NCBI GenBank assembly: GCA_965238005.1
Contig: OZ250165.1
Span: 2,752,001 to 2,816,000, forward strand
Reading direction: 5' to 3'
Source of the DNA: Longimicrobiales bacterium
GTDB lineage: Bacteria; Gemmatimonadota; Gemmatimonadetes; Longimicrobiales; Gaopeijiaceae
Length of the DNA stretch: 64,000 nucleotides
A program made the position numbers and the translations under genes. Shown in pieces: positions 756 to 64,000 of this stretch. The notes under the pieces were generated by a model. That model was not told the DNA's origin. It saw only the letters and a program-made list of their open reading frames with translations, and searched no databases. The number at the start of each line of letters is the position of its first letter. Within the stretch, counting starts at the first letter, position 1.

Positions 756-910
756 GCTGGCTCATGACCGGTTACCTGTCATGAGCCAGCATACCCTTTG
801 TACCCACAAAGGGGCTGGCGAGGGGGGCGCTCCGCCCCCCCTTCGATCCCCCTGAGGCCCGCGCTCCGGCAGAGTTCACGGGCAGGGAGCGAGCCCCCCC
901 GAACCCCCCT
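756..910 (-). other. ColE1-type oriT-like region
   Basis: IR CCCTTTGT/ACAAAGGG (794-813) followed on minus strand by TATGCTGGCTCA; homologous to 32161-32220 and 55140-55270. Confidence 0.6.
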
Positions 911-5815: not shown

Positions 5816-5908
5816 GCACCGAGTTCGTGTAAACAGAGAGGATTGGGAGAAGGACACACAGGCAGTACCAAGCTCGCCTCACCGCACCGGGAAAGCGACC
5901 GAATCCCC

Positions 5909-8437: not shown

Positions 8438-8446
8438 AGCTTATTC

Positions 8447-34053: not shown

Positions 34054-34917
34054 ATGCGACCACCAATGACACCCATCGTTCTAACCGCCCTTCTCTTGGC
34101 TGCCCTCCCCGCCGGGGCTACCGCCCAGCAGGAGGACGACCAAGCGTTCCTCCGGGTGCCGGTCCCGGAGGAGGGGGAGGATCGGATCCATCGGCTCCGC
34201 ACCCAGGTCCGTCACACGACGGTGATCGTGCTCCCCGCCGATGAGAACATCCTGGATTTCGTGGTCGGCGACTCGGAGTACTGGCACCTGACCGGCGCGG
34301 CGAACGTCGCGTTCCTGAAGCCTCTGCGGCCGGACGCGGCGACGAATATCGCGCTCGTATGCGAGTCGGGGCGGATCTACTCGTTCCTGGTGGCCGAGCA
34401 CAGCGACGGGCCGCCTCATCTAGTCGTTCGCGTCGAGTCCGGAGCAGAGGCGGCGCGGCTCTCCGGAGGCACGGGCCGTCCCGCGTTCGTCGCACGGAGC
34501 GAGGTCGCGGCCTATCAGCAGATGGCCGCCGAGGCGGCCGAGGCGGCTCGCAGCGCCCGGGAAGCAGCCGAGGCCGGCATCCTGGAGGCCCGGTCGCAGG
34601 CTGAGTCGGCGATCGAGGAGTTCCGTGCCGGCTATCCGGAGCGCCTCGCCTTCGAGTACCGGCTCGACGGGGACGCGGCCGACCGGCCGTTCCTGGTCGA
34701 AGCGATGTGGCACGACGGGCAGTTCACCTACCTCCGGTCCCACGCCCAGGAGTCGCCGGCCCTCTATGAGCTCCGGGACGGCGAGCCGGCGCTCGTGGCT
34801 TACGATCTGACGGATGAGGGCCTCTACATCGCCCGCCACGTACTGGGAGACGGGTGGCTGCAGATCGGCGACAAGCGGGCCGCTTGGCGGTTCACGCCCA
34901 GGGACGGGCTCCGATGA
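34054..34917 (+). CDS. virB9: VirB9/TrbG
   Basis: Signal peptide, VGD..W, FLKP, WHDGQFTY; operon context. Confidence 0.85.
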   Translation: MRPPMTPIVLTALLLAALPAGATAQQEDDQAFLRVPVPEEGEDRIHRLRTQVRHTTVIVLPADENILDFVVGDSEYWHLTGAANVAFLKPLRPDAATNIALVCESGRIYSFLVAEHSDGPPHLVVRVESGAEAARLSGGTGRPAFVARSEVAAYQQMAAEAAEAARSAREAAEAGILEARSQAESAIEEFRAGYPERLAFEYRLDGDAADRPFLVEAMWHDGQFTYLRSHAQESPALYELRDGEPALVAYDLTDEGLYIARHVLGDGWLQIGDKRAAWRFTPRDGLR

Positions 34918-42642: not shown

Positions 42643-42715
42643 CCGTCAGGTAGACATCAATTTGGAGCTCAAGCGCCTGCGGACCAACCGTGATGTGGCG
42701 CGGGCCAGACTGTGA
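42643..42715 (+). pseudogene. C-terminal tail of DUF4391-like gene cut by IS
   Basis: RQVDINLELKRL...* directly upstream of mod. Confidence 0.45.
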
Positions 42716-42729
42716 ATCGAGAAGACCGT

Positions 42730-44682
42730 ATGAGTATGAAGAAGATCATTCTCAACGACCCAGAAACCCGCTCGGCCGATGTTGTAGCCGAGAATCTTGA
42801 ACATCTGAAAGTGCTGTTTCCCGAAGCGTTCACCGAAGGGAAAGTCGACTTCGAAGTGCTCCGGCAACTTCTGGGCGACGTGGTCGAGAAGCGCGAGGAG
42901 AAGTACGGCCTCAACTGGCATGGCAAGCGGCAGGCCCGGCAGCTCGCGCTGACACCCAGTGCTGGAACACTGCGGCCATGCCCGGAAGACAGCGTGGATT
43001 GGGACACCACCCAGAACCTCATGATCGAGGGCGACAACCTCGAAGTCCTCAAGCTCCTCCAGAAGTCCTACGCTGGGAAGGTCAAGCTCATCTACATCGA
43101 CCCGCCCTACAACACCGGCAAGGACTTCGTCTATCCCGACAACTTCCAGGACAACATCAAAAACTACCTCGAACTCACCGGCCAGACCGGCGAGGGTGGC
43201 AAGAAACTCTCCTCCAACACCGAAGCCTCCGGCCGCTTCCATACCGACTGGCTGAACATGATGTATCCGCGTCTGAAGCTCGCGCGAAACATGCTAAGAG
43301 ACGATGGAGTCCTCTTCGTCAGCATTGACGAGCGAGAAGTCGCCAACCTGCGAGCGGTCCTCGACGAGCTCTTTGGGGCGGAAAACGGTGTGTGCGAATT
43401 CGTGTGGCAGGCCAAGAAGGGAGGGGGTAGTGACAACCGTGGCGTTGTGTCGGAGCACGAGTACGTACTTTGCTATTGCCGGAACATTGATGCGGAGCCT
43501 CTCGGGCAGCTCACAATCGATGCGGAGCCGCTGGATCAGACGGACGCCAATGGACCCTATCGCCGTGGCCGCGAATTGAACAAGTGGGGTGCGAATTCTC
43601 TACGCAAGGACCGCCCTACGATGTTTTTTCCGATTCCTGGATTGAACGGCGTCGATGTGTTCCCTATCAGGAATGACGGCAAGGAGGGATGCTGGCGCTG
43701 GGGCAAGAAGAAGATCCTCCAAGCTGTGGCGGATGGCAACGTGGAGTTTGTTGCCAGAGAGAATGAGACCTATATCGCGTATGAGAAAATTAGATCCTCG
43801 GATGCCCGCAGGAAGCCATTTCGAACGTTGCTCACTGATTCTGGGCAAACGGCCGATGGCACAAAGGTGATCAAAGATCTCTTCGATGGCGAACGGGTCT
43901 TCGACTTCTCGAAGCCACTAGACTTGGTATCGGCATTGTTGACTATTGGAATGCCGCTATCAGATGACGATGACATAGACGCTGCACCGCTTGTGATGGA
44001 CTTCTTCGCCGGGTCTGGGACCTCTGGTCACTCGGCGATGCTGCGTTCTGCCGCTGACGGTGACTCCTCCTGCCGATTCGTTCTTGTTCAGCTACCCGAG
44101 ACACTGGACACCGACGATAAGGACCAGAACGTTGCTGCAAAATACTGCGACACTATCGGCAGGCCCCGCACGATCGCCGAACTGACCAAAGAGCGCCTGC
44201 GCCTGGCCGGGAAGAAGATTCGGGAGGAAAACCCAATGTTCGCGGGTGACCTCGGCTTCCGCGTGTTCAAACTTGCCAGCAGCAACATCCGGGCGTGGGA
44301 GCCGGACGGCGAGAAGCTTGCCGAAACCCTCGAAGCCTCTATTGAGCACCTCAAGACCGACCGCACGGAGCAGGACATCCTCTTCGAGCTGCTCCTCAAG
44401 CTCGGCCTCGATCTCACCGTGCCCATCGTTCAGCGCACCATTGCCGGTAAGGCCATCCACAGCATCGGCGGCGGCGTTCTCCTCGTCTGCCTTGCCGACT
44501 CCATCACGCAGGTTGAGGCCGAGCCCCTGGCTCTTGGCGTAGTCGCGTGGCACAAAGAGCAAGCCCCAGCTGGCGAGAGCACCGTGGTCTTCCGCGACAG
44601 CGCGTTCGCCGATGACGTGGCCAAGACCAACCTAGCGGCCATTCTCTACCAACACGGCCTCGAAAAGGTCAGCAGCCTGTAA
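42730..44682 (+). CDS. mod: Type III R-M methyltransferase
   Basis: IEGDNLEVLK, YIDPPYNTG, WLNMMYPRL, DFFAGSGT. Confidence 0.95.
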   Translation: MSMKKIILNDPETRSADVVAENLEHLKVLFPEAFTEGKVDFEVLRQLLGDVVEKREEKYGLNWHGKRQARQLALTPSAGTLRPCPEDSVDWDTTQNLMIEGDNLEVLKLLQKSYAGKVKLIYIDPPYNTGKDFVYPDNFQDNIKNYLELTGQTGEGGKKLSSNTEASGRFHTDWLNMMYPRLKLARNMLRDDGVLFVSIDEREVANLRAVLDELFGAENGVCEFVWQAKKGGGSDNRGVVSEHEYVLCYCRNIDAEPLGQLTIDAEPLDQTDANGPYRRGRELNKWGANSLRKDRPTMFFPIPGLNGVDVFPIRNDGKEGCWRWGKKKILQAVADGNVEFVARENETYIAYEKIRSSDARRKPFRTLLTDSGQTADGTKVIKDLFDGERVFDFSKPLDLVSALLTIGMPLSDDDDIDAAPLVMDFFAGSGTSGHSAMLRSAADGDSSCRFVLVQLPETLDTDDKDQNVAAKYCDTIGRPRTIAELTKERLRLAGKKIREENPMFAGDLGFRVFKLASSNIRAWEPDGEKLAETLEASIEHLKTDRTEQDILFELLLKLGLDLTVPIVQRTIAGKAIHSIGGGVLLVCLADSITQVEAEPLALGVVAWHKEQAPAGESTVVFRDSAFADDVAKTNLAAILYQHGLEKVSSL

Positions 44683-44691
44683 GCGAAAGCC

Positions 44692-47600
44692 ATGAAACTT
44701 CACTTAGAGCCCAACCTCGATTACCAGCTTCAGGCCATCGAGGCCGTCTGTGGCCTTTTCCACGGACAGGAAACCTGCCGAACCGAATTCACCGTCACCC
44801 AAGACACTGCCACTGGGCAAATGTCGCTGCTCGAAAACGACCTTGGGATCGGCAATCGGCTGACTCTTCTCGACGAAGAACTCCTCGCTAATCTGCACGC
44901 CATCCAACTCCGCCACGGCCTTGCCCCATCAGTCTCGCTCGCGTCCGGGGATTTCACCGTCGAGATGGAGACCGGTACCGGCAAGACCTATGTATATCTG
45001 CGGACCGTCTTTGAGTTGAACAAGCGTTACGGCTTCACCAAGTTCGTCATCGTCGTGCCCTCGGTGGCGATCAAGGAAGGCGTCTATCACACCATCGATA
45101 CCGCGGCGGAGCACCTCAAGGGGCTCTACGCGGGCGCGCCCTTCGACTTCTTCATCTACGACTCGGCGAAGCTAGGCCAGGTGCGCAACTTTGCGACCAG
45201 CCCGCAGATTCAGATCATGGTGATGACGGTGGGCTCGATCAACAAGTTCGGCGACGAGCAGCAGGCGCAGACGGAGGAAGCGGACGAGGCCGCCCGACGT
45301 GAGAAATCGAAGAACGTGATGTATCGCCCCAGCGAAAAGACGGGCGGGGAGAAGCCTATCGATCTGATCCGGGCGACGCGCCCCCTCCTCATCGTGGACG
45401 AGCCGCAGAGCGTGGAAGGCGGGCTCAACGGCAAGGGCAAGAAGGCCATGGAGCGGATGAATCCGCTGTGCAACCTGCGCTATTCCGCGACGCCGAAAGG
45501 GGCGCACCACATGGTGTTCAAGCTCGATGCGGTGGATGCCTACGAGCGGAAACTGGTGAAGCAGATTGAGGTAGCGGCAGCATCCGTGGAGGGCGGGCAC
45601 AACAAGGCGTATGTGCGGTTCATCGCGCCGGTATCCCGTGGCAAGAGCGTCGTGGGCGCCAGGGTGGAGCTGGACATCGCCAAGGCACACGGCGTGGACC
45701 GACAGACGGTCACCGTGGCACCGCTCGACAAGCTCGAAGAAGTGACCAAGCGGGAGATTTACCGGGACCACATCATCGGGCAGGACATCCGGGATGCCAA
45801 GGACGACAAGTTCATGGAACTCCGCTATCCCGGCGGCGAGGAATACCTCCGTCCCGGCCAAGCCTACGGCGACGTGGACGCGCTGGCTGTGCAGCGCCAG
45901 ATGATCCACCGCACCATCAAGGAGCACCTGGACAAGGAGAAGCGTCTCCGCCCGCAGGGCATCAAGGTGCTCAGCCTGTTTTTTATCGATGCCGTCGGGA
46001 AATACCGGCAGTACGACGCCGACGGCAACTCGGTGAAGGGCGACTACGCCCGCATCTTCGAGGAGGAATACCGTCGGCTCGCCAAGCATCCCGACTACCA
46101 GACCCTCTTCAAGGAAGTGGACCTGACCACCGCCGCCGAGGACGTGCACAGCGGCTATTTCTCCATCGATAAGAAAAAGGTCGGCACCAAGACGGTGGAG
46201 GTGTTCAAGGACACCAAGGGGACCACCCAGGCCGACGATGACACCTATGGCCTTATCATGCGGGACAAGGAGAAGCTGCTGAGCTTCGAAACCCCGCTGA
46301 AGTTCATCTTTTCCCACTCCGCCCTACGCGAAGGCTGGGACAACCCGAATGTCTTTCAAATCTGCGCATTGCGCGAGATGAGTTCAGAGCAGCAGCGACG
46401 CCAGACCATCGGACGCGGCCTGCGTCTCTGCGTCAATCAGAACGGCGAACGCCTGCGCGGCTTCGAGATCAACACGCTGACTGTGATTGCGACCGAGAGC
46501 TACGAACAGTTCGCCGAGAAACTCCAGAAGGAGATCGAAGAAGAAACGGGTATTCGCTTCGGCATCGTGGAGGCGCACCAATTCGCCGGGGTCACCGCCT
46601 CTGGAGCCGATGGCCAGCCTGCGCCGCTGGGCTTCAAGCAGTCGAAGGTGCTGTGGGAGCATTTGAAAACTGCGGGTCTCGTGAACGCCCAAGGCAAGGT
46701 GCAGGACGCGCTGCGGCAACAACTGAAGGACGGCACGCTGACCCTGCCAGAGCCGTTCGTTGCCCAACTCCCGCAGGTGAAAGAGATCCTCCGCAAACTG
46801 GCAGGACGCTTGGAGATCAAGAACGCCGACGAGCGCAAGCAGGTGAAGACCCGTCAGGCCGTCTTGCAGGGCGAGGACTTCAAGGCGCTGTGGGAGCGCA
46901 TCAAGTACAAGACCACGTACCGCGTCCAGTTCGACAACGAGGCCTTGCTCGCGACCTGTATCCAGGCGATCAAAGTCCCGAACTTCGCTATCACCAAGAC
47001 GCGCCTGCAATGGCGCAAGGCCGATCTCGCCATCGGGCGCTCCGGGGTAGACGCGAAGGCGACTGTTACCTCTGCCCCAGTGACGCTCGATGAGGGCGAC
47101 ATCGAGTTGCCCGACATCCTGACAGATCTCCAGGACAAGACCCAGCTCACGCGGCGTAGCATTCACCGCATCCTCGTGGACAGCGGCCGGCTCGATGACT
47201 TCAAACGCAACCCGCAGCAGTTCATCGATCTCGCGGCAGAGGTCATCAACCGTTCGAAGCGTCTCGCGCTCGTGGACGGCATTAAGTACCAGCGCATCGG
47301 CGTCGAGGATTACTACGCCCAGCAACTGTTCGAGACTGAAGAGCTAGTCGGCTACCTCAAATCCATGATCGACGCCAATAAATCGGTTCACGAGCAGGTG
47401 ATCTACCAGTCCGGCACCGAACGCACCTTTGCCGAGCAGCTGGAGATGAACGAAGCCATCAAGGTGTATGCCAAGCTCCCCGGTTGGTTCCGGGTGCCCA
47501 CGCCCCTCGGCCCCTACAACCCCGACTGGGCCGTGCTGGTGGAAAAAGACGGAGCCGAGCGCCTTTACTTCGTGGTCGAAACGAAGAGCGGACTCTTCAC

Positions 47601-47733
47601 GGATGATCTGCGTGACAAAGAGGAAGCGAAAATCGAGTGCGGAAGAGCGCACTTCAAAGCTCTGGCGGTGCGCGAGAGGCCGGCGAGATACACCGTCGCG
47701 CGCACGGTGGATGACGTGTTGTCTTCGACGTGA
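44692..47733 (+). CDS. res: Type III restriction endonuclease
   Basis: EMETGTGKT, DEPQ, SAT, LREGWDNPN, QTIGRGLR, YNPDW..VETK. Confidence 0.95.
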   Translation: MKLHLEPNLDYQLQAIEAVCGLFHGQETCRTEFTVTQDTATGQMSLLENDLGIGNRLTLLDEELLANLHAIQLRHGLAPSVSLASGDFTVEMETGTGKTYVYLRTVFELNKRYGFTKFVIVVPSVAIKEGVYHTIDTAAEHLKGLYAGAPFDFFIYDSAKLGQVRNFATSPQIQIMVMTVGSINKFGDEQQAQTEEADEAARREKSKNVMYRPSEKTGGEKPIDLIRATRPLLIVDEPQSVEGGLNGKGKKAMERMNPLCNLRYSATPKGAHHMVFKLDAVDAYERKLVKQIEVAAASVEGGHNKAYVRFIAPVSRGKSVVGARVELDIAKAHGVDRQTVTVAPLDKLEEVTKREIYRDHIIGQDIRDAKDDKFMELRYPGGEEYLRPGQAYGDVDALAVQRQMIHRTIKEHLDKEKRLRPQGIKVLSLFFIDAVGKYRQYDADGNSVKGDYARIFEEEYRRLAKHPDYQTLFKEVDLTTAAEDVHSGYFSIDKKKVGTKTVEVFKDTKGTTQADDDTYGLIMRDKEKLLSFETPLKFIFSHSALREGWDNPNVFQICALREMSSEQQRRQTIGRGLRLCVNQNGERLRGFEINTLTVIATESYEQFAEKLQKEIEEETGIRFGIVEAHQFAGVTASGADGQPAPLGFKQSKVLWEHLKTAGLVNAQGKVQDALRQQLKDGTLTLPEPFVAQLPQVKEILRKLAGRLEIKNADERKQVKTRQAVLQGEDFKALWERIKYKTTYRVQFDNEALLATCIQAIKVPNFAITKTRLQWRKADLAIGRSGVDAKATVTSAPVTLDEGDIELPDILTDLQDKTQLTRRSIHRILVDSGRLDDFKRNPQQFIDLAAEVINRSKRLALVDGIKYQRIGVEDYYAQQLFETEELVGYLKSMIDANKSVHEQVIYQSGTERTFAEQLEMNEAIKVYAKLPGWFRVPTPLGPYNPDWAVLVEKDGAERLYFVVETKSGLFTDDLRDKEEAKIECGRAHFKALAVRERPARYTVARTVDDVLSST

Positions 47734-50817: not shown

Positions 50818-51030
50818 CGGCGCGCCAAGGCCGCGGCAGCCGAGGTCGAGCACGAGCGCACCCGGCAGGTCGCGCGCATCGGCAACAACCTGAACCAGCT
50901 CGCGCGCTGGGCGAACACGCACGCCTCGGCGGTCGAGGCCGTCGCGGTGATCGCTAACCTCGTGTCGTTCGAGCGTTCGCTGCTCGCTGCCATGGCCCGC
51001 TTCGACGGAGATGGCGGCGATGCACATTAA
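50818..51030 (+). pseudogene. mobC: MobC/MbeC lacking N-terminus
   Basis: ERTRQVARIGNNLNQLARWAN; in-frame stop upstream; overlaps relaxase start. Confidence 0.8.
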
Positions 51031-52540
51031 GTGCCTCCGGCGCGGTAGGGGCTCGGCCCGGGCGGCGGTCGACTATCTCGTCGGCGAGCGGGACGCCGAG
51101 GGGCACAGGCGCGAGGGCGTCGAAGTCCTGCGCGGGAACCCGGACATGGTGGCCACCGTCGCCGACTCGCTGGAGTTCGAGCGCAAGTACACGTCGGTCG
51201 TGATCGCGTGGGCGCCGGACGACCAGCCAACCGACGCGCAGATCGGAGCCGTCCTCGACGAGTTCGAGCAGACGGCGTGGGCGGGATTGGAGCCGGACCG
51301 CTACGCGTGGACAGCCGTCCTGCACCGCGAGCGCGGGGGCGGCGTCCACGTGCACGTCCTCGCCGCGCAGTGCGACCTGGAGACGGGGCGCAGCCTGAAC
51401 ATCGCGCCGCCCGGCTGGCAGAGGACCTTCGACCCGCTACGCGACGCCTTCAACCACGAGCACGGCTGGAGCCGCCCGGACGACCCGGCGCGGGCCAGGG
51501 CGCAGCAGCCGGGCCACCTGGCCTACATCGAGGCGTCGAAGCTGCGGGCCGGGCTGGAACACGAAGCCGACCCGCGCGGATTGATCCGCGACTACCTGGT
51601 GCAGCGCGTCGAGCACGGCGCGGTCCGAAGCCGCGCCGACGTCGTCTCCGCCCTGGAGGCAGTCGGCCTTGAAGTGCCGCGCCAGGGCAAGAACTACGTC
51701 ACCGCCCGCGATCCGGACAGCGGAAAGCGGTGGCGGCTGAAGGGAGCGCTGTATGAGCATGACTTCCAACCCGAACGACTTGACTTCCCGGCTGGGCCGC
51801 CAGCTGGAGGCCGACCGCCGGCAGATCGAGGAGACGGCCACGCGCGAGCTCGAGCGGCTCGGCGAGAGCTTGAGCGCCGCCGCAAGCGGCGCGCTGCGTT
51901 CCATCGAGGCCGATACGGCGGCGGCGACCTCACGGGTGAGCGTCCTGCTGAGGCGCGCGTGGCTCCGGTCCCTGGTGATCGGCCTGAGCCTTTTTCTCGG
52001 TATCAGCGGCGGCAGCTGGGCGACGATGCACTGGTTGTCGACGAGCATCGAACGCCGGATCGAGACCTTGGCGACGGTGAACGTGCAAATAGAGCAGGCG
52101 CGGGAGACCCTGGCCGAGATCGAGGAGACGACCTGGGGCGTGACGCTGCGGGAGATCGGCGGGGAGCAGTTCGTGGTGCTGCCGACTGGCACGCTGGACT
52201 ACCCGCCTTGGACCGTGGGCGGGCGGCCTGCGGTGAAGCTGTCGAGAGAGTGAAGGAGCTATATGACCGAGCTAGAACGGCAGTTGACGAAGGCCTTGGA
52301 GAGGTTGTCCGCGCAGTACGAGATGGAACAGCAGCGGCACTCAGAGCAGGTCGAAGCCTTGGAGCAGCGGGTCGAGCAGCAAGCCGCGCAGAGCGAAACC
52401 TTGCGGCAGCAGGTCGCACAGCTGACCGGGCAAGTGACGCACTTGGCCCGGGACTACAGGACGCTCGCCGCGACGTTGCGCGGGCGCTGGAGCTGATGCG
52501 CCAGCGGAGCCGAGAGCGCGATCATGGTCCGAGCCGCTAG
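51020..52540 (+). CDS. mobA: MOBP-family relaxase, MbeA-like
   Basis: AVDYL, VLRGNP, YTSVVIAW, H...HVH, DLETGRSL, GWSRPDDP. Confidence 0.9.
   Translation: MHIKCLRRGRGSARAAVDYLVGERDAEGHRREGVEVLRGNPDMVATVADSLEFERKYTSVVIAWAPDDQPTDAQIGAVLDEFEQTAWAGLEPDRYAWTAVLHRERGGGVHVHVLAAQCDLETGRSLNIAPPGWQRTFDPLRDAFNHEHGWSRPDDPARARAQQPGHLAYIEASKLRAGLEHEADPRGLIRDYLVQRVEHGAVRSRADVVSALEAVGLEVPRQGKNYVTARDPDSGKRWRLKGALYEHDFQPERLDFPAGPPAGGRPPADRGDGHARARAARRELERRRKRRAAFHRGRYGGGDLTGERPAEARVAPVPGDRPEPFSRYQRRQLGDDALVVDEHRTPDRDLGDGERANRAGAGDPGRDRGDDLGRDAAGDRRGAVRGAADWHAGLPALDRGRAACGEAVERVKELYDRARTAVDEGLGEVVRAVRDGTAAALRAGRSLGAAGRAASRAERNLAAAGRTADRASDALGPGLQDARRDVARALELMRQRSRERDHGPSR
51753..52253 (+). CDS. MbeB-like protein nested in relaxase gene
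   Basis: Alternate frame, TM segment, TWGV motif; ColE1-like position. Confidence 0.75.
   Translation: MSMTSNPNDLTSRLGRQLEADRRQIEETATRELERLGESLSAAASGALRSIEADTAAATSRVSVLLRRAWLRSLVIGLSLFLGISGGSWATMHWLSTSIERRIETLATVNVQIEQARETLAEIEETTWGVTLREIGGEQFVVLPTGTLDYPPWTVGGRPAVKLSRE
52263..52496 (+). CDS. MbeD/MobD-like protein nested in relaxase gene
   Basis: MTELERQL..ALE.L coiled coil; AAGGAG RBS. Confidence 0.8.
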   Translation: MTELERQLTKALERLSAQYEMEQQRHSEQVEALEQRVEQQAAQSETLRQQVAQLTGQVTHLARDYRTLAATLRGRWS

Positions 52541-52968: not shown

Positions 52969-53796
52969 CTAGAATGGGACATCGTCATCCTCTTCATCAT
53001 CCTCTGGAGCTGAGTAGGAAAGGTCTCTAAACCTATCCAACCATTCGTCCAATTCCTTATTCATCCCTCGGTAGCGTCGGGAGATAAATGCGATTGGTTG
53101 ATGCATCTCTTTCAGATAGTCTAGAGTGTGTTGATAGCCTGCCTCCTTCTTGACCTGACTATCATGCACTTCGACGTAACTACTAAGCAGATCTTGGATT
53201 ACCGATTGGGGTAGAGTTTGACGTATCGCAGGTTGTGACGCGAGTCTTCTGTTAAGCTGAAGAATCTCCTCCAACAATTCTCTGTCCGACCGGATCGGCT
53301 CGTCCGGCTCGCCTGCCTCACCGAGGATCTGATTGATCTTTGTTTCAAGATCTGGCCACCATTTTCCGAACACCGTGTCGAGCGTCTTAGACGGCAGTTT
53401 GTTATCGCCGCTTCCGTTGTTGATGACACCGAGCAGCCGGTGCATATCACTCTTCTCAAATTCCGTCGTTTGAAACTGTTTTAACGGACCCGCAAGATCG
53501 GTGTTGTTGATTCCGAACAAGACCGGGCAAACATGAGATTTGTCCAAGCTCTTAGACAGGGCGCCAGCCTCGAACAGAATCCAATCACTGTGAATGTTTT
53601 CCCGTGTTATGCAAAGGATGCCGATCTGCGATTTTGCGAGTTCTGTCGAAATATCGGTCGACCAACGTGTTCCTTTCTCTAGATCTGACGGAGTGAAGTA
53701 CGGCCTAACGAGTTGAAGCACGCCCGGAATCCAATCTCGCAGAGCTTCGCCAACCTTCTTGCTGTACTGCCCCGACCAGCTGATAAACACTTTCAT
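52969..53796 (-). CDS. TIR-domain protein
   Basis: MKVFISWSG, KGTRW, WILFEAGAL. Confidence 0.88.
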   Translation of the reverse strand: MKVFISWSGQYSKKVGEALRDWIPGVLQLVRPYFTPSDLEKGTRWSTDISTELAKSQIGILCITRENIHSDWILFEAGALSKSLDKSHVCPVLFGINNTDLAGPLKQFQTTEFEKSDMHRLLGVINNGSGDNKLPSKTLDTVFGKWWPDLETKINQILGEAGEPDEPIRSDRELLEEILQLNRRLASQPAIRQTLPQSVIQDLLSSYVEVHDSQVKKEAGYQHTLDYLKEMHQPIAFISRRYRGMNKELDEWLDRFRDLSYSAPEDDEEDDDVPF

Positions 53797-55315: not shown

Positions 55316-56503
55316 CTATGGCTTGCGACTGTCGCCGGTGAGGTACGCAGCCCACTGCTCCATCAGGACGCGCCTGCGCTCGAACAGGTCCGAACGCGCA
55401 TAGGCAGCTTCCACCTTGTTGCGAACCGCATGCGCCAACGCGGCCTCGGCGACCTCACGCGGTGCGTTGGAACACTCGCCGCACCAGTCCCTGAAGCTCG
55501 AACGAAAGCCGTGCGGCACGGCCGCGATACCCAGGTCTCGAAGCAGCGTGGGGAGTCTGCTGCCGGGAAATGCGCGGCCCTCCGGCGACGGGAAAACGAG
55601 ACCGCTGCCGCCGCCGAGCGTCCGCGCCTCGCTCAGTATCTCCATGGCGCGCCCGGACAGCGGCACCCTGTGGGGGCGATGGGCTTTCGTGCGTTCGGCG
55701 GGAACCGTCCACTCCCGAGCCTCCAGGTCGATTTCATCCCAGTGCGCCAAGCGAACCTCTCCCGAGCGGGCCGCCGTCAACACCAGGAACTCGAAGGCGA
55801 GTTTCGTGGTCGGGTAAGCGTGCGACCTCCGCACCGTTTCCATCGCGCCCGCGACCTTCGAGTGAGGCAACGCGCGCATGTGCCGGACTACGGCTTGCTG
55901 TCGGCCGAGCGCTTGACCGAGCACGTCGCTGGCGGGGTTGTCCGGCCGAAGCCCCATCGCCACCGCCCACTTCATCACCGCCCCGATGCGCTGGCGCACC
56001 CGCCGGGCAGTCACCTGCTTGTCGTGCCAGATCGGTGTCAGCACCGCCAGAACGTCGGCTGTCGTTATCTCGCCAACCGGTCGATGGCCGAGCTGTGGGA
56101 ACGCATAGACGCGCAGGCTGGAGACCCAGTCCTTCGCATGCCTGGGGCTGCGCCAGCCCGGCCGCAGCTGTTCCAGAACACGGGCGGCCGCCTCGGCGAA
56201 CGTGGGCATGTCCCGGACCTTGTGCCGCTCGGTACGCGGATCGCCGCCCGAGCGCGCGATCTTGCGGTTCATGAATGCCTTCTCGCGCGCCTCGGCCAGC
56301 GATACCAGCTGGTAGCCCCCGAGCCCCAGCGTGCGGTTTCGACCCTGGATCCGTAGACGCTGCTCCCATCGGCGCGCGCCCGATCGGTCCACGCGCAGAT
56401 AGAGGCCGTTCCCATCGCAGTAGTATCCGGGCTTCGCACTGCGCACGAAGGCCGCGCTGAGTGCGTTATGCGGGCGCCTGCCTCGATGTTTGGGTAAATC
56501 CAT
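55316..56503 (-). CDS. P4-like tyrosine integrase (element A)
   Basis: Close paralog of 32283-33485; catalytic motifs intact. Confidence 0.95.
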   Translation of the reverse strand: MDLPKHRGRRPHNALSAAFVRSAKPGYYCDGNGLYLRVDRSGARRWEQRLRIQGRNRTLGLGGYQLVSLAEAREKAFMNRKIARSGGDPRTERHKVRDMPTFAEAAARVLEQLRPGWRSPRHAKDWVSSLRVYAFPQLGHRPVGEITTADVLAVLTPIWHDKQVTARRVRQRIGAVMKWAVAMGLRPDNPASDVLGQALGRQQAVVRHMRALPHSKVAGAMETVRRSHAYPTTKLAFEFLVLTAARSGEVRLAHWDEIDLEAREWTVPAERTKAHRPHRVPLSGRAMEILSEARTLGGGSGLVFPSPEGRAFPGSRLPTLLRDLGIAAVPHGFRSSFRDWCGECSNAPREVAEAALAHAVRNKVEAAYARSDLFERRRVLMEQWAAYLTGDSRKP

Positions 56504-56662: not shown

Positions 56663-57281
56663 GACGGTTGATCAGCTCGGAGAGAAGCCGCGAGGCTTCG
56701 GCGGGCTCGAGCATCTCGATCGGCGTGTGCTCCTCCACGAGCGCACGGCCCGCGTCCACCGTCGAGCGAAAGCGGGCGGCGGCCGCCTCGATCTCGGAAC
56801 CGAGGTAGGTCGGCGCGCCCCCTCGGCGGCGCTTCCACCACTGCATGAGCCGGGAGGCGCTTCCTGTTCTGGGCCCGTCTGCGACCGTGCGTAGACGGGG
56901 ATCGTGCGACCAGACCAGATAGGCTTCGAGCTGCTGGACGCGGCCCGACAGAAACGCACTCCGCTTCCGCTGCGACACCGCTACGATGCCGGAGCCCTCG
57001 TCGTCCGCGGCCTCGGGCACACTCGGCCGACGGAGCAGATAGAAGTAGAGGCGCGTGTCGGCGTCCAAACCCGAGAGCAACCGCTGCCAGCGGCCCAGCA
57101 CGCGGTCGATCTGTTCGGGCGAACGCCCATCCACCACCGCGGGCTCCAGCCGCCCGGCCGCGATCAGCTCGCCCGAGCGGGTCAGGCAGGTACGGCCGTC
57201 CTCGAGCCAGCCCCAGTAGGGCAGCTCCTCGGCCAACGAGCCGGCCGCCTCGTGGTCCCGGAGCTCCGCGGAGATCCTCAC
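56663..57281 (-). pseudogene. virB4: VirB4 N-terminal part
   Basis: Follows virB3; LPYWGW; ends ELINR at 16-bp core shared with 27104-27119. Confidence 0.88.
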
Positions 57282-57580
57282 CGCCCGCTCCGGATCACGA
57301 GATACCAGGGCTCATCGGACCACTTGCCCGGATCGAAGCGGGCCGGGTAGCGGGTCCCGGCGCGGAGCACGCCAAGCATGTCCGGGTCTTTGCGGCCGGC
57401 GAGCCACCCGGCCCCATAGCCGACCGCGAACACCACGCCGCCCGTCACCAGCGAAGCCGTCGCGTTCCACATCGCGAGCCCGAGCGTGGCGACGAGCAGA
57501 AACCCCCTACGCTCCACACCCAGGATCGTGAGCGGACGGTTCAGCGCCGGATAGCCGGCCCAGCGCCTCAGACCCCTCAT
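57278..57580 (-). CDS. virB3: VirB3/TrbD
   Basis: ALNRPLTILGVER, two TMs, KDP, FDP. Confidence 0.85.
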   Translation of the reverse strand: MRGLRRWAGYPALNRPLTILGVERRGFLLVATLGLAMWNATASLVTGGVVFAVGYGAGWLAGRKDPDMLGVLRAGTRYPARFDPGKWSDEPWYLVIRSGR

Positions 57581-57873
57581 CAGAAGAGCCACGCCAGGAA
57601 GTTGGCCGCGCCCATCGCCATCCCGAGACCGAAGATGATCCCGGCCAGCGTCCGCTTGCTACCGCCCTCGCCGAACGCGAACATCAGCCCGCCCACCACG
57701 ATCGCGATCAGCGACAGCCCCCGCGCGATCGGACCCGTGAACTGCGCCTGCAGCTCGTTCACCGCCTCAACCCACGGGCTCGTCCCCTGCGCCCACAGCA
57801 GCCCGGGGGACAGCAACCACAGCGTGAGCGTGGCCCAGGCCGCCGCTCGTACCGTCCTTATGAAAGGTTGCAT
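57580..57873 (-). CDS. virB2: VirB2/TrbC pilin
   Basis: Signal peptide, PW...L...FTGPIA..LSLIAIVVGG. Confidence 0.9.
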   Translation of the reverse strand: MQPFIRTVRAAAWATLTLWLLSPGLLWAQGTSPWVEAVNELQAQFTGPIARGLSLIAIVVGGLMFAFGEGGSKRTLAGIIFGLGMAMGAANFLAWLF

Positions 57874-57908
57874 CGTCTTCTCCTTGGTCTCTCGCTGGGA
57901 TGCGCCGC

Positions 57909-58400
57909 TCACTCGGCCTCGCCGCGGCTCAACGCGATCTGTTTGCGGATCCACTCGTCCACCTCCTCCTCGATCCAGCCGACAGCGCGCGCGCCCAGCT
58001 GGACGGGTCTGGGGAAGGACCCCTCGGCCAGCCGCACGTAGATCGTGCTCCGCCCGAGCCCCGTGCGAGCTTGCACGGCCGGGAGCCGCACGATGCGGAT
58101 CGGCACCTCCATTTCCTGCACCATGGTTCTCGTCATCTCTCTGCCTCTCCGTTCTCTCGGGGATGAATCCCGGAGCCGGTCGCTCCGGGAGGAAACAGGG
58201 TCCACACCGGCCTCGTCGAAGCCTTCCATGAACGCCAGGAGCTGATCGGCCGTCGCGAGCGTCGGGGAGCGGCCAAGGCGTAGCTCACGCACCAGGTTCG
58301 GATCGCCAACCGCCTGGCGGCCAAGCGTCGCCGGACCCACTCCCGTGCGCTCGAGGAACGCATCCACTCGCGCCATGAAAAGCCCCTTCAGCGTCTCCAT
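57909..58400 (-). CDS. HTH + AlpA regulator heading the T4SS operon
   Basis: N-terminal HTH-like part (GDPNLV..LR.GRSP) in frame with AlpA domain. Confidence 0.85.
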   Translation of the reverse strand: METLKGLFMARVDAFLERTGVGPATLGRQAVGDPNLVRELRLGRSPTLATADQLLAFMEGFDEAGVDPVSSRSDRLRDSSPRERRGREMTRTMVQEMEVPIRIVRLPAVQARTGLGRSTIYVRLAEGSFPRPVQLGARAVGWIEEEVDEWIRKQIALSRGEAE

Positions 58401-58908: not shown

Positions 58909-59490
58909 TCAGTCGTTCGTCGAATCACGTGACTCAGCCTGGCTGTACTCCTGTGTCGTCGGGAGAGCTTGACCGGTGGGTGATGGCTCTTCAACGGACG
59001 GTACCCATACAGGCAGCACCCGTTTGCCTTCCAACAGCTCGCGCACACCGGTTCGAATAGCAACCTGGTCCGTCTCTGTTTCGCCGAACCCGCGAGGAAA
59101 GTACGCGTTGCGACGAAGGTGTGTCCGATCGAAGTCATAGCCAACGCCTACCGCGATATTGTAAAGTAGGTCAATAAAAAGATCGAGAGTCTTTTCGTGC
59201 CAAACTTCACTTGGCATGTTTGCAGAATTTAGGATGTCCAGGTATGCCTTCCACGCAGACCGTACCCGCTTGGACTTCGCATCCACTCCGCTGAACTCGA
59301 CATCGATCATGTTCAGAGCGTTCACATGATCTGGGGCGAGCCGGGAAGCCCGTGTCATCATGAGGGTGCGGAAGAGCGTCAGGCGACGCTGCCGCTTTTC
59401 TCGACGAGTCTCCAGAAAGACGGAGACTTGGATTGCGATCAGGGGCGCCAATAGGACCGCGTCGACCATCAGTACGTCAGTCAGGGACAT
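58909..59490 (-). CDS. DUF6680-like membrane-anchored protein
   Basis: APLIAIQV, FRTLM.TR, HVNALNMIDVEF, AYFP. Confidence 0.75.
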   Translation of the reverse strand: MSLTDVLMVDAVLLAPLIAIQVSVFLETRREKRQRRLTLFRTLMMTRASRLAPDHVNALNMIDVEFSGVDAKSKRVRSAWKAYLDILNSANMPSEVWHEKTLDLFIDLLYNIAVGVGYDFDRTHLRRNAYFPRGFGETETDQVAIRTGVRELLEGKRVLPVWVPSVEEPSPTGQALPTTQEYSQAESRDSTND

Positions 59491-60180: not shown

Positions 60181-61347
60181 CTATTTAAATGTAATCGTGC
60201 GTTCCTCTAGATCAGCGATAACAGTCCCTCCTCGATGTTTACACACTTCCCTGAATACTCGAAATCCCTCCAGTATCGCGACCTCCCACTGCCAAAGTGG
60301 GCGACTCTCCACTTCATACCCTTTCACAAGTTTCTGAATGGCCTTCAACAGTGAGTAGTCGAGGGCGTTGATATTCCGAAAATGATGGTTCTGGAGGCCG
60401 TGGTTAAAGATCCATGTAGAGATGCCTTCTTCAATCAGGCTGGCACGTGCACCATCTTCATTCTCATCGATCTCTGGGCGGCTCTTCCGTTTGGCTTTGA
60501 ACAGGCGCCGCACAACTGGGGACCAGCCAAGAATCGCTGCATATGCGAGATGAAACACGTCGTGAAAGCGGTAATTATCTGGCGTAGAACGGTTGTCCGT
60601 TAATGGGTCTCCGATAGCGATTCCATTGCACTTCTGGATAACGTACTTCTTTCCTAACACATCTTTTTCTTTGAATACAATCTCAATCCGACGTGGCAGA
60701 CGCTCATCTTCGTCAAAGTCGTCGTCATACAGTGCTTGCCATTTCTGTTCCCTCGGCCATCGACTTTGAGTTTTGTTCATATTGGAGCGTGCCGCCGCGT
60801 CGAGGCTTACATCAGCAGCGTCAGCAGTCGCAACGAGGGCGAGCAAGATATCGGATAGGTCGGCTAAGAGTGCATCTTGATTCGTATCGAATCTCCCATT
60901 GCTGAAGTTATCAATTACCTGGCCAACATTTGCCGCAAGGGCCATGAGACGCCTCTCGACGACTTCTGTCGAGTGAGGTCCTTCAAAATCATCTTTTCTC
61001 GTTTGGATATCAATGAACGTTGAAGCGGCCTCTTGTCCCCTATAGTCCCAATCCGATAGACCGGCAGGTAGGCGCGTGGCAATTTCGGAAAAAGGAAGGC
61101 CTGCGCGAAGCGCTGCATTTGCGAAGTACCAAAGCACATCGCCCAACTCCTCGATGACCGAATCCCGGTATGCAACGTACGACTCCTTGTCCCGTTGTTT
61201 CTTCTTCAACTGGCTGAGTAAGCTGCCAGTTTCACCAAAAAGACCAAAAAGAACGAACCCTAATCCTGATAATCCTGGGCGGTCGTTCTTGTCAGTTAGT
61301 GTCGTTGCGTGCTGGTACTCGTCTAGTCCCAGTGGTGACGATGCCAT
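60181..61347 (-). CDS. MazG-like NTP pyrophosphohydrolase with MazG-C domain
   Basis: GLFGETG, EELGDVLWY, GDPLTDN, YRFHDVFHLAYA, DE.EDGARA. Confidence 0.9.
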   Translation of the reverse strand: MASSPLGLDEYQHATTLTDKNDRPGLSGLGFVLFGLFGETGSLLSQLKKKQRDKESYVAYRDSVIEELGDVLWYFANAALRAGLPFSEIATRLPAGLSDWDYRGQEAASTFIDIQTRKDDFEGPHSTEVVERRLMALAANVGQVIDNFSNGRFDTNQDALLADLSDILLALVATADAADVSLDAAARSNMNKTQSRWPREQKWQALYDDDFDEDERLPRRIEIVFKEKDVLGKKYVIQKCNGIAIGDPLTDNRSTPDNYRFHDVFHLAYAAILGWSPVVRRLFKAKRKSRPEIDENEDGARASLIEEGISTWIFNHGLQNHHFRNINALDYSLLKAIQKLVKGYEVESRPLWQWEVAILEGFRVFREVCKHRGGTVIADLEERTITFK

Positions 61348-61616
61348 GAATTCGTACCTCTCGTGCCAGAGTATTGGGGCTCGTTGTGTCTTTGTTCAGA
61401 ATTCGGTAGGATGGGCCAATCTTACACTGAGGCAGGGATCAGCGCAGGGATTCTGGGCATGACCCACTGACTTCAAGGGTCGGTTCGTTCCGAGAGCACA
61501 CGCGGGAGCTGCTAGGTTGACCCACCAGGACCGACCATGCATCTGGCTTCGTCTTCGAGAAACTGTTCACGTACTCGGAGCCGGAGATCGCCCACAGATG
61601 CGGCGCTGAACGCGAA

Positions 61617-62690
61617 TCAGACCTGCTCTCCGAGTCCACTCGCAATCCGGGAGTTGATCCCCCACTTGGGCGGGTACCAGGGTCGTGGCAGCTCGCCTGT
61701 CTCTCGGAACGACTGCTTGATACGAGTTCTCCCAGACACTCCGGGGAAGTCGGGATGTGCAACTCTGGCGTACTTGCCCACTTCACAGAAGAGGTTTTGA
61801 CAGTCTATATACTGGAGTGGTCTGCCCCATAGATCCTTGAACGTGATTCCGAATCCTTCGAACTCCTCATCTTGCCGATCCACCATGAGCTTTATCACGT
61901 CGACTTCGTTCAATCCTCCGAGGTCGTGAAAACATTTGTGGATGCCGTCGATAGCGCCGGGGCCCGGCACAACGAACTCAGACTCGGAGAAATCAACAAT
62001 GGGTCCATAGTTCAGGTCGGTCACGAACTGATATGCTAGGAAGTCTCCAATAGATGGAAACGAGCGAATCAGCATGAACGCGTCCTGCATCCGTTGGCAT
62101 TCTTGGAGTCGGTCCGGCACGTCTGCAGCCATCATCTGCTCCAGCAATCGAAGGTGGTTGCGGTGCTTTCGTCGAGATCCGAACAAACTGGGTGAGGGAA
62201 CGATGTAGGCAGCGGAGTAGAGTTTGTCTCCGCGTCGAAAGGCTCCGTCTAGGACTCGGTCGTACTCCCCGAAGCTGTATGTCGACCAAGAGACTTCTCC
62301 AAACTCACTTTCGAGCCTCTGCCAAGTGTGAATTCGATTAAAGAGCTTGAAGAGGATCGTTCGAAAAAAAAGTTCGATGGGCGTTTGGAGTGGCTGGTGG
62401 ATGACACGCCGAATCAAAAACTGACTCGTCCGATCTGAAGCACGATACGCGTTCGTGAACTTGAACTTCTGAAGAATAGGATCCTCCGTCCATGGTGCAG
62501 GATGACCCTGGACGCGACGGAAGAAGATCTCCTGTCGAGCAGCCGCTAGGCGCCAGTAGCTCTCGTATACAGGTGTCGGGATTGCCGGTCGCAGGCGCAC
62601 AAAGACCTCGGGTGCGACTTGCGAAGGGGCCTTTCGGGACGAAATCGCTAGCCGCAGCTGCGCGTCGCCCGCTGGCTTCTCACGGCCCAA
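61617..62690 (-). CDS. aGPT-Pplase1 / 5hmdU-DNA-kinase-like protein
   Basis: WTEDPILQKFKFTNAYRASDR, YSAAYI, FLAYQ..DLNY, GPGA, CQNLFCE.GKY. Confidence 0.85.
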   Translation of the reverse strand: MGREKPAGDAQLRLAISSRKAPSQVAPEVFVRLRPAIPTPVYESYWRLAAARQEIFFRRVQGHPAPWTEDPILQKFKFTNAYRASDRTSQFLIRRVIHQPLQTPIELFFRTILFKLFNRIHTWQRLESEFGEVSWSTYSFGEYDRVLDGAFRRGDKLYSAAYIVPSPSLFGSRRKHRNHLRLLEQMMAADVPDRLQECQRMQDAFMLIRSFPSIGDFLAYQFVTDLNYGPIVDFSESEFVVPGPGAIDGIHKCFHDLGGLNEVDVIKLMVDRQDEEFEGFGITFKDLWGRPLQYIDCQNLFCEVGKYARVAHPDFPGVSGRTRIKQSFRETGELPRPWYPPKWGINSRIASGLGEQV

Positions 62691-63297
62691 CGGTTGCGGT
62701 CAGATCCAAGGCCGCTCTCACCTTTTCCTTTGCCTGCTTTAACGTTCCTTCGTTAACGATCCGTATGACGTTCAGTTCTCCCTCTGCTAGCCGTCCGTAG
62801 GCGAGAGACAGCTTCCTGAATTGATCTCGGTCGTGCTCCTCCCGAAAAGGCTGCCGACGCTCGACCAGAAAGATTGGAGTGGGGCTGAGTGCACCCCATG
62901 TGCTCTTCTCCAATTCCAACAGGGCCGTCATCTGCGACTCAGCAACACCGTTAGCCACGCCATAGACCCAGGCCGACCACCAATACCGATCCAAGAGCAC
63001 GGTTTTGCCAGATCGAATGGCTGGCTTGATACGCTTGTCGATCGCATCAATGTGTGCCGCAACGTGGAGCATCTGGAGTGCAAATGGCTCAATGTCGTAA
63101 CTACCGTGATGAAGGTCATAGACCCAGCGACCCAGTGAACCGGGATCGTTACCCGGGAAGGCCAGGCCGACGACCGGAAGGTTCGCCTCCTTCAGAAGAT
63201 CCAGGCAAAATGAATGCAGCGTCGACTTGCCGACCCCGTCGGGTCCCTCCAAGACGATCAATCTTCCGGGCCGTGAGCCTCCGCCGTCCGGGCTCAT
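62680..63297 (-). CDS. Thymidylate-kinase-like protein
   Basis: LEGPDGVGKST, FPG, LLDRYW.S..VY. Confidence 0.9.
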   Translation of the reverse strand: MSPDGGGSRPGRLIVLEGPDGVGKSTLHSFCLDLLKEANLPVVGLAFPGNDPGSLGRWVYDLHHGSYDIEPFALQMLHVAAHIDAIDKRIKPAIRSGKTVLLDRYWWSAWVYGVANGVAESQMTALLELEKSTWGALSPTPIFLVERRQPFREEHDRDQFRKLSLAYGRLAEGELNVIRIVNEGTLKQAKEKVRAALDLTATVGP

Positions 63298-64000
63298 TCC
63301 TTGCGGAGCTCGCTGGCCAACCCAGCAAGCTCACCCTTCGAAAATCTATTCGAAAGGCCCGCGACTGAGGAGACGCAGGTAATCCGAGTCAGGTTTCGAT
63401 CGAAGGCGTCGGCAACGAACTCTCCCAGCCTCGCGAGCCCAAGATAGTTTCCGTAGCCACGATCGAAGATGTCCTGTTTCGCATAGAAGCCAGTCACCGC
63501 AAAACCGTTATGAGCCTCTGGCACGAAGCAAACCTGGTGCATGCACGGGAATCCGAGAAAGGGAGTCGGGAGGTGGTCTGTAGAGGGATCGAAGAAGGAA
63601 GCTACGAAGGCACTTCGGCGTTTCACGTTCCGGTTCCAGGTCGCGATGATTCTCTCAAGTTGGTTGATCTCCTTAACTCCGAACGAGATGAGGCGCAGAA
63701 AGTATGTGCCACGACGATTTGCAGGAATCTTGCAGATTCTCTTCTCGTAGACTTTACGATACCTCTCATAGAGAGCGGCACGCGACGTGCCGCGTCGCCA
63801 CATGCTGCTAGGGAAGATCGTCGAAGCCGTCGTCCCCACCCTCCAGACGCCCGGCTGAGCACAGAGGAGCGCGTCAACAGCACTGCGGACGTGGAGATCC
63901 TCAGGAGGGAGACCAGAGAAGCCAGAAACGGTAATCACCAGAGGACTGATCTCGCGATGATCGTAAGTTGCCAAGAACGCATGGGTCCACGCCCCGCTCA
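63294..64000 (-). CDS. Thymidylate-synthase-like protein (5' end probably outside window)
   Basis: NQL, FDP..DH, FPCM catalytic Cys, GYGNY; ATGA overlap with kinase. Confidence 0.75.
   Translation of the reverse strand, partial: SGAWTHAFLATYDHREISPLVITVSGFSGLPPEDLHVRSAVDALLCAQPGVWRVGTTASTIFPSSMWRRGTSRAALYERYRKVYEKRICKIPANRRGTYFLRLISFGVKEINQLERIIATWNRNVKRRSAFVASFFDPSTDHLPTPFLGFPCMHQVCFVPEAHNGFAVTGFYAKQDIFDRGYGNYLGLARLGEFVADAFDRNLTRITCVSSVAGLSNRFSKGELAGLASELRKE

Follow-up and report, generated by a model that had tools for sequence, protein, structure and literature searches.

Which role can be assigned to a bacterial gene cluster whose products resemble the enzymes with which phages hypermodify thymine? 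The question is raised by one end of a 64,000-nucleotide stretch of a Longimicrobiales bacterium genome (GCA_965238005.1, contig OZ250165.1, positions 2,752,001 to 2,816,000), hereafter the window, where genes for a thymidylate synthase (TS)-like protein, a P-loop kinase, an HMUDK_hel protein and a MazG-MazG_C protein lie side by side. No mechanism has been established for HMUDK_hel-centered bacterial systems, including the experimentally validated DS-4 of Escherichia coli. We read the window as carrying the 3' two-thirds of a horizontally acquired seven-gene operon and, with moderate confidence, favor an anti-phage system gated by a CapH/CapP-like switch, in which the TS-like protein, the kinase and HMUDK_hel would alter C5 of uracil, in a nucleotide or in DNA, MazG would feed or clear nucleotide pools and a carrier protein may take part.

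A seven-gene operon built around a conserved five-gene core

The original prediction, made from the letters of the window, described an operon of four co-directional genes, and all four are indeed on the minus strand. Among the open reading frames (ORFs), which were called by a greedy script, these are the TS-like gene (63294 to the window end at 64000 and continuing beyond), a P-loop dTMP-kinase-like gene forming a separate ORF (62680-63297; 205 aa; PF02223, 2.7e-14), a gene for HMUDK_hel, or aGPT-Pplase clade 1 (61617-62690; 357 aa; PF18723, 2.4e-110), and the gene for MazG fused to MazG_C (60181-61347; 388 aa; PF18722, 2.7e-79; PF03819, 1.6e-7). The enzyme families named in the prediction are thus borne out by Pfam or, for the TS-like protein, by its fold, and the suspicion that the operon runs past the window proved correct. 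In a 20-kb extension (L002), the TS-like gene has a likely ATG at window-equivalent position 64022, giving 242 aa in full, and is preceded on the same strand by genes for an IrrE/ImmA peptidase, an XRE-type helix-turn-helix (HTH) protein and a 95-aa protein resembling acyl carrier proteins (ACPs). The last of these (window-equivalent 65223-65510, L002:7223-7510, minus strand) is the first gene of the operon, and the full order is ACP-like, XRE/CapH-like, ImmA/CapP-like, TS-like, kinase, HMUDK_hel and MazG-MazG_C.

Relatives of the TS-like protein are common (682 matches in 90% clusters; 849 representative clusters at E <= 1e-3) and are encoded in at least 574 places among 185,579 species genomes. 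The 80 best-scoring of these loci, which are related rather than independent, were compared, gene presence being determined by tblastn with the proteins of the window and, for the ACP-like protein, with six diverse queries. The loci span Chloroflexota, Cyanobacteria, Planctomycetota, Verrucomicrobiota, Acidobacteriota, Desulfobacterota, Actinomycetota and Gammaproteobacteria. The TS-like gene is present in all 80, HMUDK_hel in 77, ImmA in 74, XRE in 72 and the ACP-like gene in 70, in each case directly upstream of XRE, with several of the misses falling on truncated contigs; MazG-MazG_C is found in 48 loci and the kinase in 39. The conserved core, distributed over hundreds of species from many phyla, consists of the ACP-like, XRE, ImmA, TS-like and HMUDK_hel genes, and the kinase and MazG are alternative add-ons. 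Hence, the four genes of the prediction are real, yet two of them are variable, and three of the five core genes (ACP-like, XRE and ImmA) lie outside the window.

Further genes accompany the core in a combinatorial fashion. A second, canonical-type TS (TS2; PF00303, ~1e-20), which keeps the PC, RSxD and PYN motifs, occurs in 25 loci, all 25 with the kinase; equally many carry a dCTP-deaminase-like gene. DUF1643 (PF07799, ~1e-50) is present in 12 loci, all with MazG and usually adjoining a phosphopantetheinyl transferase gene (e.g., L039:5487-5975 and L047:10303-10797), followed in frequency by TIR (11), radical SAM (8), Nmad2 (7) and SLATT (2). MazG and TS2 tend toward mutual exclusion: 4 loci have the two together, 44 MazG alone, 21 TS2 alone and 11 neither. 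The combination seen in the window, kinase, HMUDK_hel and MazG without TS2 or the dCTP-deaminase-like gene, occurs in 3 of the 80 loci, and the full DS-4 gene set stands beside the TS-like gene in 5. DS-4-type and MazG-type systems emerge as modules of one combinatorial family. Within the phylum of the window, MazG_C was found in 5 of 401 genomes, with HMUDK_hel directly upstream in all 4 of the others; 2 of these possess the full cassette and 2 a set of ThsB-TIR, Nmad2, HMUDK_hel and MazG-MazG_C.

In some cassettes, the radical SAM gene takes the place of MazG or TS2 after HMUDK_hel, as in L037, L043, L049, L038, L040, L057 and L065. The one protein examined, that of L037, gave weak matches to the PADLOC pVip models (1.2e-10); it could be viperin-like or akin to the M6 gp53 isomerase.

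Spacing within the operon is tight at its center. The TS-like gene shares 4 nt with the kinase gene. An 11-nt overlap of the kinase and HMUDK_hel genes requires the TTG at 62690 as start codon; an alternative GTG start 30 codons downstream (327-aa form, P0269) would leave a gap of ~79 nt. Overlap of the first three genes, as originally claimed, accordingly holds for the first pair and depends on the start codon for the second. The MazG gene is co-directional but separate, because a gap of 269 nt (61348-61616, from ORF coordinates, minus strand) follows HMUDK_hel. A consensus scan placed no promoter- or terminator-like site in this gap. With 3 promoter-like sites, where 2.7 were expected, that scan yielded nothing usable, and an inverted-repeat search upstream was equally uninformative.

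A CapH/CapP-like switch and a putative carrier protein

The peptidase (283 aa; PF06114, 1e-15) contains an HELGH motif of the HEXXH type, and the XRE protein is a short HTH repressor (125 aa; PF01381, 1.3e-14). Their best PADLOC matches are capP (1.7e-15) and capH (1.1e-13), respectively. As in CapH+CapP, genes for a repressor and a HEXXH Zn-peptidase directly precede the effector genes. In the window operon, however, an ACP-like gene comes before the pair, the two proteins match at moderate scores (55 and 50 bits), and sensing of single-stranded DNA (ssDNA) and repressor cleavage are here an analogy. A recent preprint describes ssDNA activating CapP, a protein of 288 aa in E. coli, with derepression of immune operons as the outcome (bioRxiv 10.64898/2026.05.16.725639). 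The comparison group also includes the IrrE/DdrO and ImmA/ImmR pairs, which are DNA-damage-responsive regulators.

The 95-aa protein gave a sub-threshold match to the Pfam PP-binding family. A profile of 28 members of its own family has an invariant D41-S42, which falls on the 'DSL' phosphopantetheine site of ACPs, and when compared with solved structures it retrieved 94 chains at E <= 10 (best E 1.4e-4); nearly all of the best 60 of those 94 are named acyl carrier proteins. The family thus has the profile of an ACP helical bundle with an Asp-Ser site. A gene for phosphopantetheinyl transferase (PF01648, 1e-15 to 1e-19) adjoins the cassette in 10 of the 80 loci, each of which also has MazG and the ACP-like gene; it was seen as well in 2 genomes from the phylum of the window and on a Sinorhizobium fredii plasmid. 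On this conjugative plasmid, the same arrangement appears under RefSeq names, with acpS beside the cassette. No such transferase gene was found near the cassette of the window itself.

Invariant catalytic residues in the four enzymes

The TS-like protein is the most divergent of the enzymes. It has no Pfam match at E <= 0.1, a genome-wide scan with PF00303 gave no match anywhere, this protein included, and a PDB sequence search with its profile found nothing; in NCBIfam, the methanogen-type TS model TIGR03283 scores 39 bits (5.2e-10), below the cut-off of 174.55. The AlphaFold2 model (pLDDT 94.7) clearly has the TS alpha/beta fold: Foldseek against the PDB assigns a probability of 1.00 to the CMP hydroxymethylase MilA (E 2.3e-9), to ThyA entries and to a phage dCMP hydroxylase, with query-normalized TM values of 0.56-0.65 to these structures. 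All 79 relatives share C160 (GFPC), Y107, R135 and Y190-G191-N192 (YGN), and an arginine pair, R135/R136, is kept. C160 and N192 correspond to the catalytic cysteine of the P-C motif and the uracil-reading asparagine, with the proviso that the alignment to canonical TS is weak.

The family lacks the clamp for the dUMP phosphate, which in ThyA we take to be formed by Arg21, Arg166 and Ser167. The Arg166 equivalent is alanine in 68 of 79 relatives and arginine in 0 of 79, that of Ser167 is threonine or lysine, and the loop after helix 1, the place of Arg21, contains no conserved arginine. Retention of PC and of the asparagine (GYGNY) together with loss of the canonical RSxD, as originally noted, therefore holds across the family. 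The positions were mapped with an hhalign comparison to the cassette's canonical-type TS, weak in itself (probability 1.9%, E 0.026), which pairs YGxRLR/YFxRL, (D/N)QLE, RQ/RRS and PC, and sets the canonical RSND...PYN against A(T/K)Q...YGN of the TS-like proteins. In our reading, this is an enzyme that may still attack C6 of uracil while holding its substrate otherwise than ThyA does; because two phosphate-binding residues of ThyA are missing, the substrate is perhaps not a plain 5'-monophosphate.

The kinase scores 53.7 bits against PF02223 (cut-off 27) and retains the P-loop lysine (38/38) and the D-R-[YF] motif (37-38/38). With 57.3 bits, it falls below the cut-off of the dTMP-kinase equivalog TIGR00041 (83.25), and it is therefore TMK-like rather than a housekeeping enzyme; it also matches the PADLOC candidate model PDC-M51B (4.3e-11). 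Kinase and HMUDK_hel form one ORF in 34 of the 39 kinase-bearing loci, and 55 of 120 listed HMUDK_hel homologs, counted by eye, carry the PF02223+PF18723 fusion. The original assignment to a nucleotide kinase family stands, but because of this fusion the protein is unlikely to be a pool kinase that works on its own, the role once given to it. In a Dehalococcoidia locus (L014:6938-9478), a single ORF of 846 aa covers the TS-like, kinase and HMUDK_hel regions, either as a triple fusion or as a sequencing or frame artefact.

HMUDK_hel is assigned with 368.8 bits to PF18723 (cut-off 25), whose members JGI names 'alpha-glutamyl/putrescinyl thymine pyrophosphorylase clade 1' and NCBI 'putative DNA base hypermodification protein'; the label aGPT-Pplase1 used in the prediction is an older name of the same family. 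A PDB sequence search found nothing. The predicted model (pLDDT 90.0) appears structurally closest to PaMx11 PUGT, a phage 5-PmdU glycinyltransferase in which Cys247 attacks C6 and expels phosphate (PMC11472151). A Cys-Glu pair, C302-E303, is identical in 77 of 77 homologs and lies in a C-terminal helix that appears to correspond to the Cys247 region of PUGT, the residues themselves being putative equivalents.

In the last enzyme, MazG (PF03819, 31.9 bits against 22) and MazG_C (PF18722, 265.6 bits against 29.7) both exceed their cut-offs. The protein belongs to a long subfamily with an insertion at residues ~92-185, and its metal and phosphate ligands are invariant: the acidic metal-binding residues E39, E66 and D70, along with K48, K49 and R52, are identical in 45 of 45 sequences. 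MazG_C has the conserved motifs YRFHDxxH, KR and DExxDGxR; an ESM Atlas look-up with this domain returned only its own family and no structural model. DeWeirdt and colleagues use for it the wording 'predicted nucleotide kinase' (PMC13092281). Judging from their invariant catalytic residues, all four enzymes look active, and the residues named here are precise targets for mutation.

Relationship to DS-4 and to phage hypermodification clusters

Computational predictions of bacterial aGPT-Pplase/MazG systems were reportedly made by the Aravind group (Iyer 2013; Burroughs 2015). Iyer et al. 2013 NAR and Burroughs et al. 2015 NAR are cited as predicting several of these domains in defense by a study that lists aGPT-Pplase, MazG and MazG-C as predicted but unvalidated defense domains (PMC13092281). 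In its Tables S6 and S8, that study (DeWeirdt, Mahoney, Laub; Science 2026) gives E. coli DS-4 ('NTTI') as TS, adenylate kinase, HMUDK_hel, TIR and Nmad2, defensive in plaque assays. The original statement that no experimental characterization was known is thus out of date. We read DS-4 as belonging to the same superfamily as the window operon, which would be another variant. In both, the operon contains a TS-family gene and a kinase gene with HMUDK_hel after it. The TS of DS-4, however, is 361 aa long and of the canonical PF00303 type, whereas the window offers only the divergent TS-like protein of 242 aa; the DS-4 genes close with TIR and Nmad2, neither of which occurs in the window operon, and the latter closes with MazG-MazG_C. 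XRE, ImmA and ACP-like genes are absent from the five that Table S6 lists for DS-4. Our literature search, which did not take in Iyer 2013 and Burroughs 2015, found no study of the cassette beyond PMC13092281.

The parallel with phage thymine hypermodification, on which the original prediction was built, is real. The M6-like phage NEU2024 has a P-loop kinase gene and then an HMUDK_hel-like gene, in the same order as the window, with a TS nearby, and in SP10 gp186 a kinase and aG/PT-PPlase1 are fused (PMC5889632, Table 3). The clusters of phages M6, ViI, SP10 and PaMx11 combine dUMP hydroxymethylase, 5-hydroxymethyluracil DNA kinase (5-HMUDK) and an aGPT-Pplase or amino-acid:DNA transferase (PMC5889632, PMC8989533, PMC11472151). 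The window shares with them a TS-family enzyme and a P-loop kinase gene that precedes one of the aGPT-Pplase family, and the Cys-Glu pair of HMUDK_hel resembles the essential pair of clade 2, the only clade with demonstrated activity. Unlike the phage clusters, the window cassette is bacterial, repressor-controlled and equipped with a carrier protein; its kinase is Thymidylate_kin-like rather than of the PF18748 type, and its TS-like protein comes from a family not found in cultured phages.

Proposed mechanism and competing explanations

Defense is the most likely role of the operon, as the original prediction, in which a modified nucleotide would mark DNA or poison phage replication, had supposed. 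It is supported by the conserved cassette, the matches to capP and capH, the link to DS-4, the accessory enzymes, the defense-rich surroundings and the low GC content (50-58% in the cassette against 65-72% in the flanks). By analogy with CapH/CapP, the repressor would hold the operon off until DNA damage or ssDNA arising in infection activates the peptidase and the repressor is cleaved. MazG could then hydrolyze pyrimidine dNTPs, supplying dUMP, removing dTTP or both. The invariant cysteine of the TS-like protein would attack C6 of a uracil substrate, and a one-carbon group, 5-hydroxymethyl-like, would be put on C5. The kinase/HMUDK_hel pair, in the window a split form of the fusion protein, may phosphorylate this group and subsequently activate it through the invariant Cys-Glu, a step modeled on phage 5-HMUDK and amino-acid:DNA transferases. 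The product would be a modified nucleotide or a DNA lesion that blocks phage DNA replication, possibly with involvement of the carrier's phosphopantetheine arm.

In a bolder form, which we regard as conceivable but doubtful, phage hypermodification chemistry has been turned into an inducible weapon: a C5-activated deoxyuridine of the phospho-hydroxymethyl type would, after derepression triggered by ssDNA, yield a reactive exocyclic methylene that is captured, possibly by the phosphopantetheine thiol of the carrier or in phage DNA undergoing replication, and the nucleotide or DNA adduct would arrest phage replication. To our knowledge, a carrier protein engaged in nucleobase chemistry would lack precedent. 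If a modified pyrimidine is indeed made on demand, the system would represent immunity of a new class, in which an antiviral small molecule or a DNA lesion is the agent, and a source of enzymes derivatizing C5 of uracil.

Several points weigh against the anti-phage reading. The one experimentally validated relative, DS-4, differs in composition from a cassette with the TS-like protein and MazG-MazG_C but without canonical TS or TIR/Nmad2, and no PADLOC model matches the TS-like protein, HMUDK_hel or MazG. For DS-4 itself, the single row in part 1 of 10 of Table S7 shows a modest effect, with phage lambda, a -log efficiency of plating of 0.93 and smaller plaques (PMC13092281). The regulators alone are no proof of immunity, because XRE+ImmA pairs also control the induction of prophages and integrative and conjugative elements (ICEs). 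The role of clade 1 is unproven even in phages, M6 gp55 having been dispensable for the in-vitro reaction (PMC8989533). Finally, the mapping to ThyA combines the weak hhalign comparison with motif logic, and since the equivalents of Arg166, Ser167 and Arg21 are missing, the TS-like protein could serve in binding or sensing instead of synthesis.

An unlikely alternative is that the operon hypermodifies self or mobile-element DNA, the modified thymine serving as an epigenetic mark or as anti-restriction in transfer. The enzyme set parallels that of phage clusters (PMC8989533), XRE+ImmA modules govern ICE and prophage mobilization (bioRxiv 10.64898/2026.05.16.725639), conjugation remnants and integrases adjoin the locus, and 10 of the 16 plasmids with a TS-like match are conjugative. 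Yet the 80 loci showed no conserved mark-reading partner (a nuclease), the effector-type genes TIR, SLATT and Nmad2 occur in variants, and the flanking genes vary around a cassette that keeps its XRE-ImmA pair. Moreover, DS-4 protects plasmid-bearing E. coli from phage (PMC13092281), and the TS-like protein has 0 matches in 50,697 records of cultured phage genomes.

Similarly improbable is pure depletion of nucleotide pools, in which MazG hydrolyzes dNTPs, the dCTP-deaminase-like protein drains dCTP and the TS-like protein and kinase only divert dUMP, the modified base being irrelevant. Defenses based on dCTP deaminase and dGTPase act by depletion, and both the invariant catalytic residues of MazG and the 25 loci with a dCTP-deaminase-like gene agree with such a role. 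Depletion leaves unexplained, however, the near-universal HMUDK_hel with its Cys-Glu pair and the carrier protein, and by tblastn within 7-kb flanks, 32 of the 80 loci have no MazG.

That the operon provides housekeeping or salvage pyrimidine metabolism, with a second thymidylate synthase, a dTMP kinase and a house-cleaning MazG, is very unlikely, and we rejected it. NCBI annotates several TS-like relatives as 'thymidylate synthase', and the kinase matches PF02223. The genome, however, already has a thymidylate synthase, ThyX (PF02511, 3.7e-50; G000:C1:4002248-4002844, L083), the TS-like protein fails PF00303 and lacks the phosphate-binding residues, the kinase is below the equivalog cut-off, the distribution is patchy (cf. 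MazG_C within the phylum), and the cassette is of low GC, in an island and under a dedicated repressor. Least credible, and likewise rejected, is a remnant of a prophage hypermodification module: HMUDK_hel homologs occur in 502 phage records, PHROG matches exist for MazG and HMUDK_hel, and 4 IMG/VR viral contigs carry cassette relatives with the TS-like protein, but the phage HMUDK_hel homologs are <=37% identical, the TS-like protein is absent from the phage records, and the Pfam scan of 50 ORFs of the window and its extension brought up none of the capsid, terminase, portal or tail families.

Taken as a whole, the observations of the original prediction are confirmed, and its interpretation is partly supported, being right in outline, incomplete and in part overtaken by the literature.

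Genomic context

The locus is an island in a defense-rich hotspot and not a prophage, as predicted; in place of phage structural genes, it contains integrases, remnants of a type IV secretion system (T4SS) and restriction-modification (R-M) genes. Pfam identified four P4-type integrases among the 50 ORFs, and two more were identified separately. Five P4-type tyrosine integrases, one of them truncated, have the coordinates 33-752, 16535-17689, 32283-33485 and 55316-56503 in the window and 8841-10124 in L002. Together with TraG (27155-28561), VirB9 (34054-34917), VirB3 (57278-57592), VirB2 (57580-57954), a relaxase (51011-52540) and AlpA (57909-58400), they suggest that integrative elements inserted one after another at a single hotspot. 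We propose no att site, because no tRNA gene was found in the window or the 20-kb extension.

The window as a whole is a defense-rich mosaic, encoding a GmrSD-type restriction enzyme (772-1914, minus strand), a type I R-M system with HsdR and a fused M/S protein (5843-10903, plus strand) and a type III-like methylase with a Res/endonuclease (42712-47733, plus strand). A TIR-TM protein (52969-53796, minus strand; PADLOC PDLC03016, 4.1e-78; Pfam TIR_2) lies in a low-GC patch ~6 kb from the cassette; it falls into a PADLOC family distinct from the TIR of DS-4 and is probably a separate defense gene. Just downstream of MazG is a gene for a DUF6680 protein (58909-59490, minus strand; 3.4e-55), which we considered as a member of the system and rejected, since tblastn found DUF6680 in 0 of the 80 loci. 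IS110 and Mutator transposases are also among the Pfam matches of the region, and amid them, beyond the second integrase, a Lambda Bor-like lipoprotein (PF06291, 5.3e-19) is encoded on the minus strand of the extension (L002 12776-13195).

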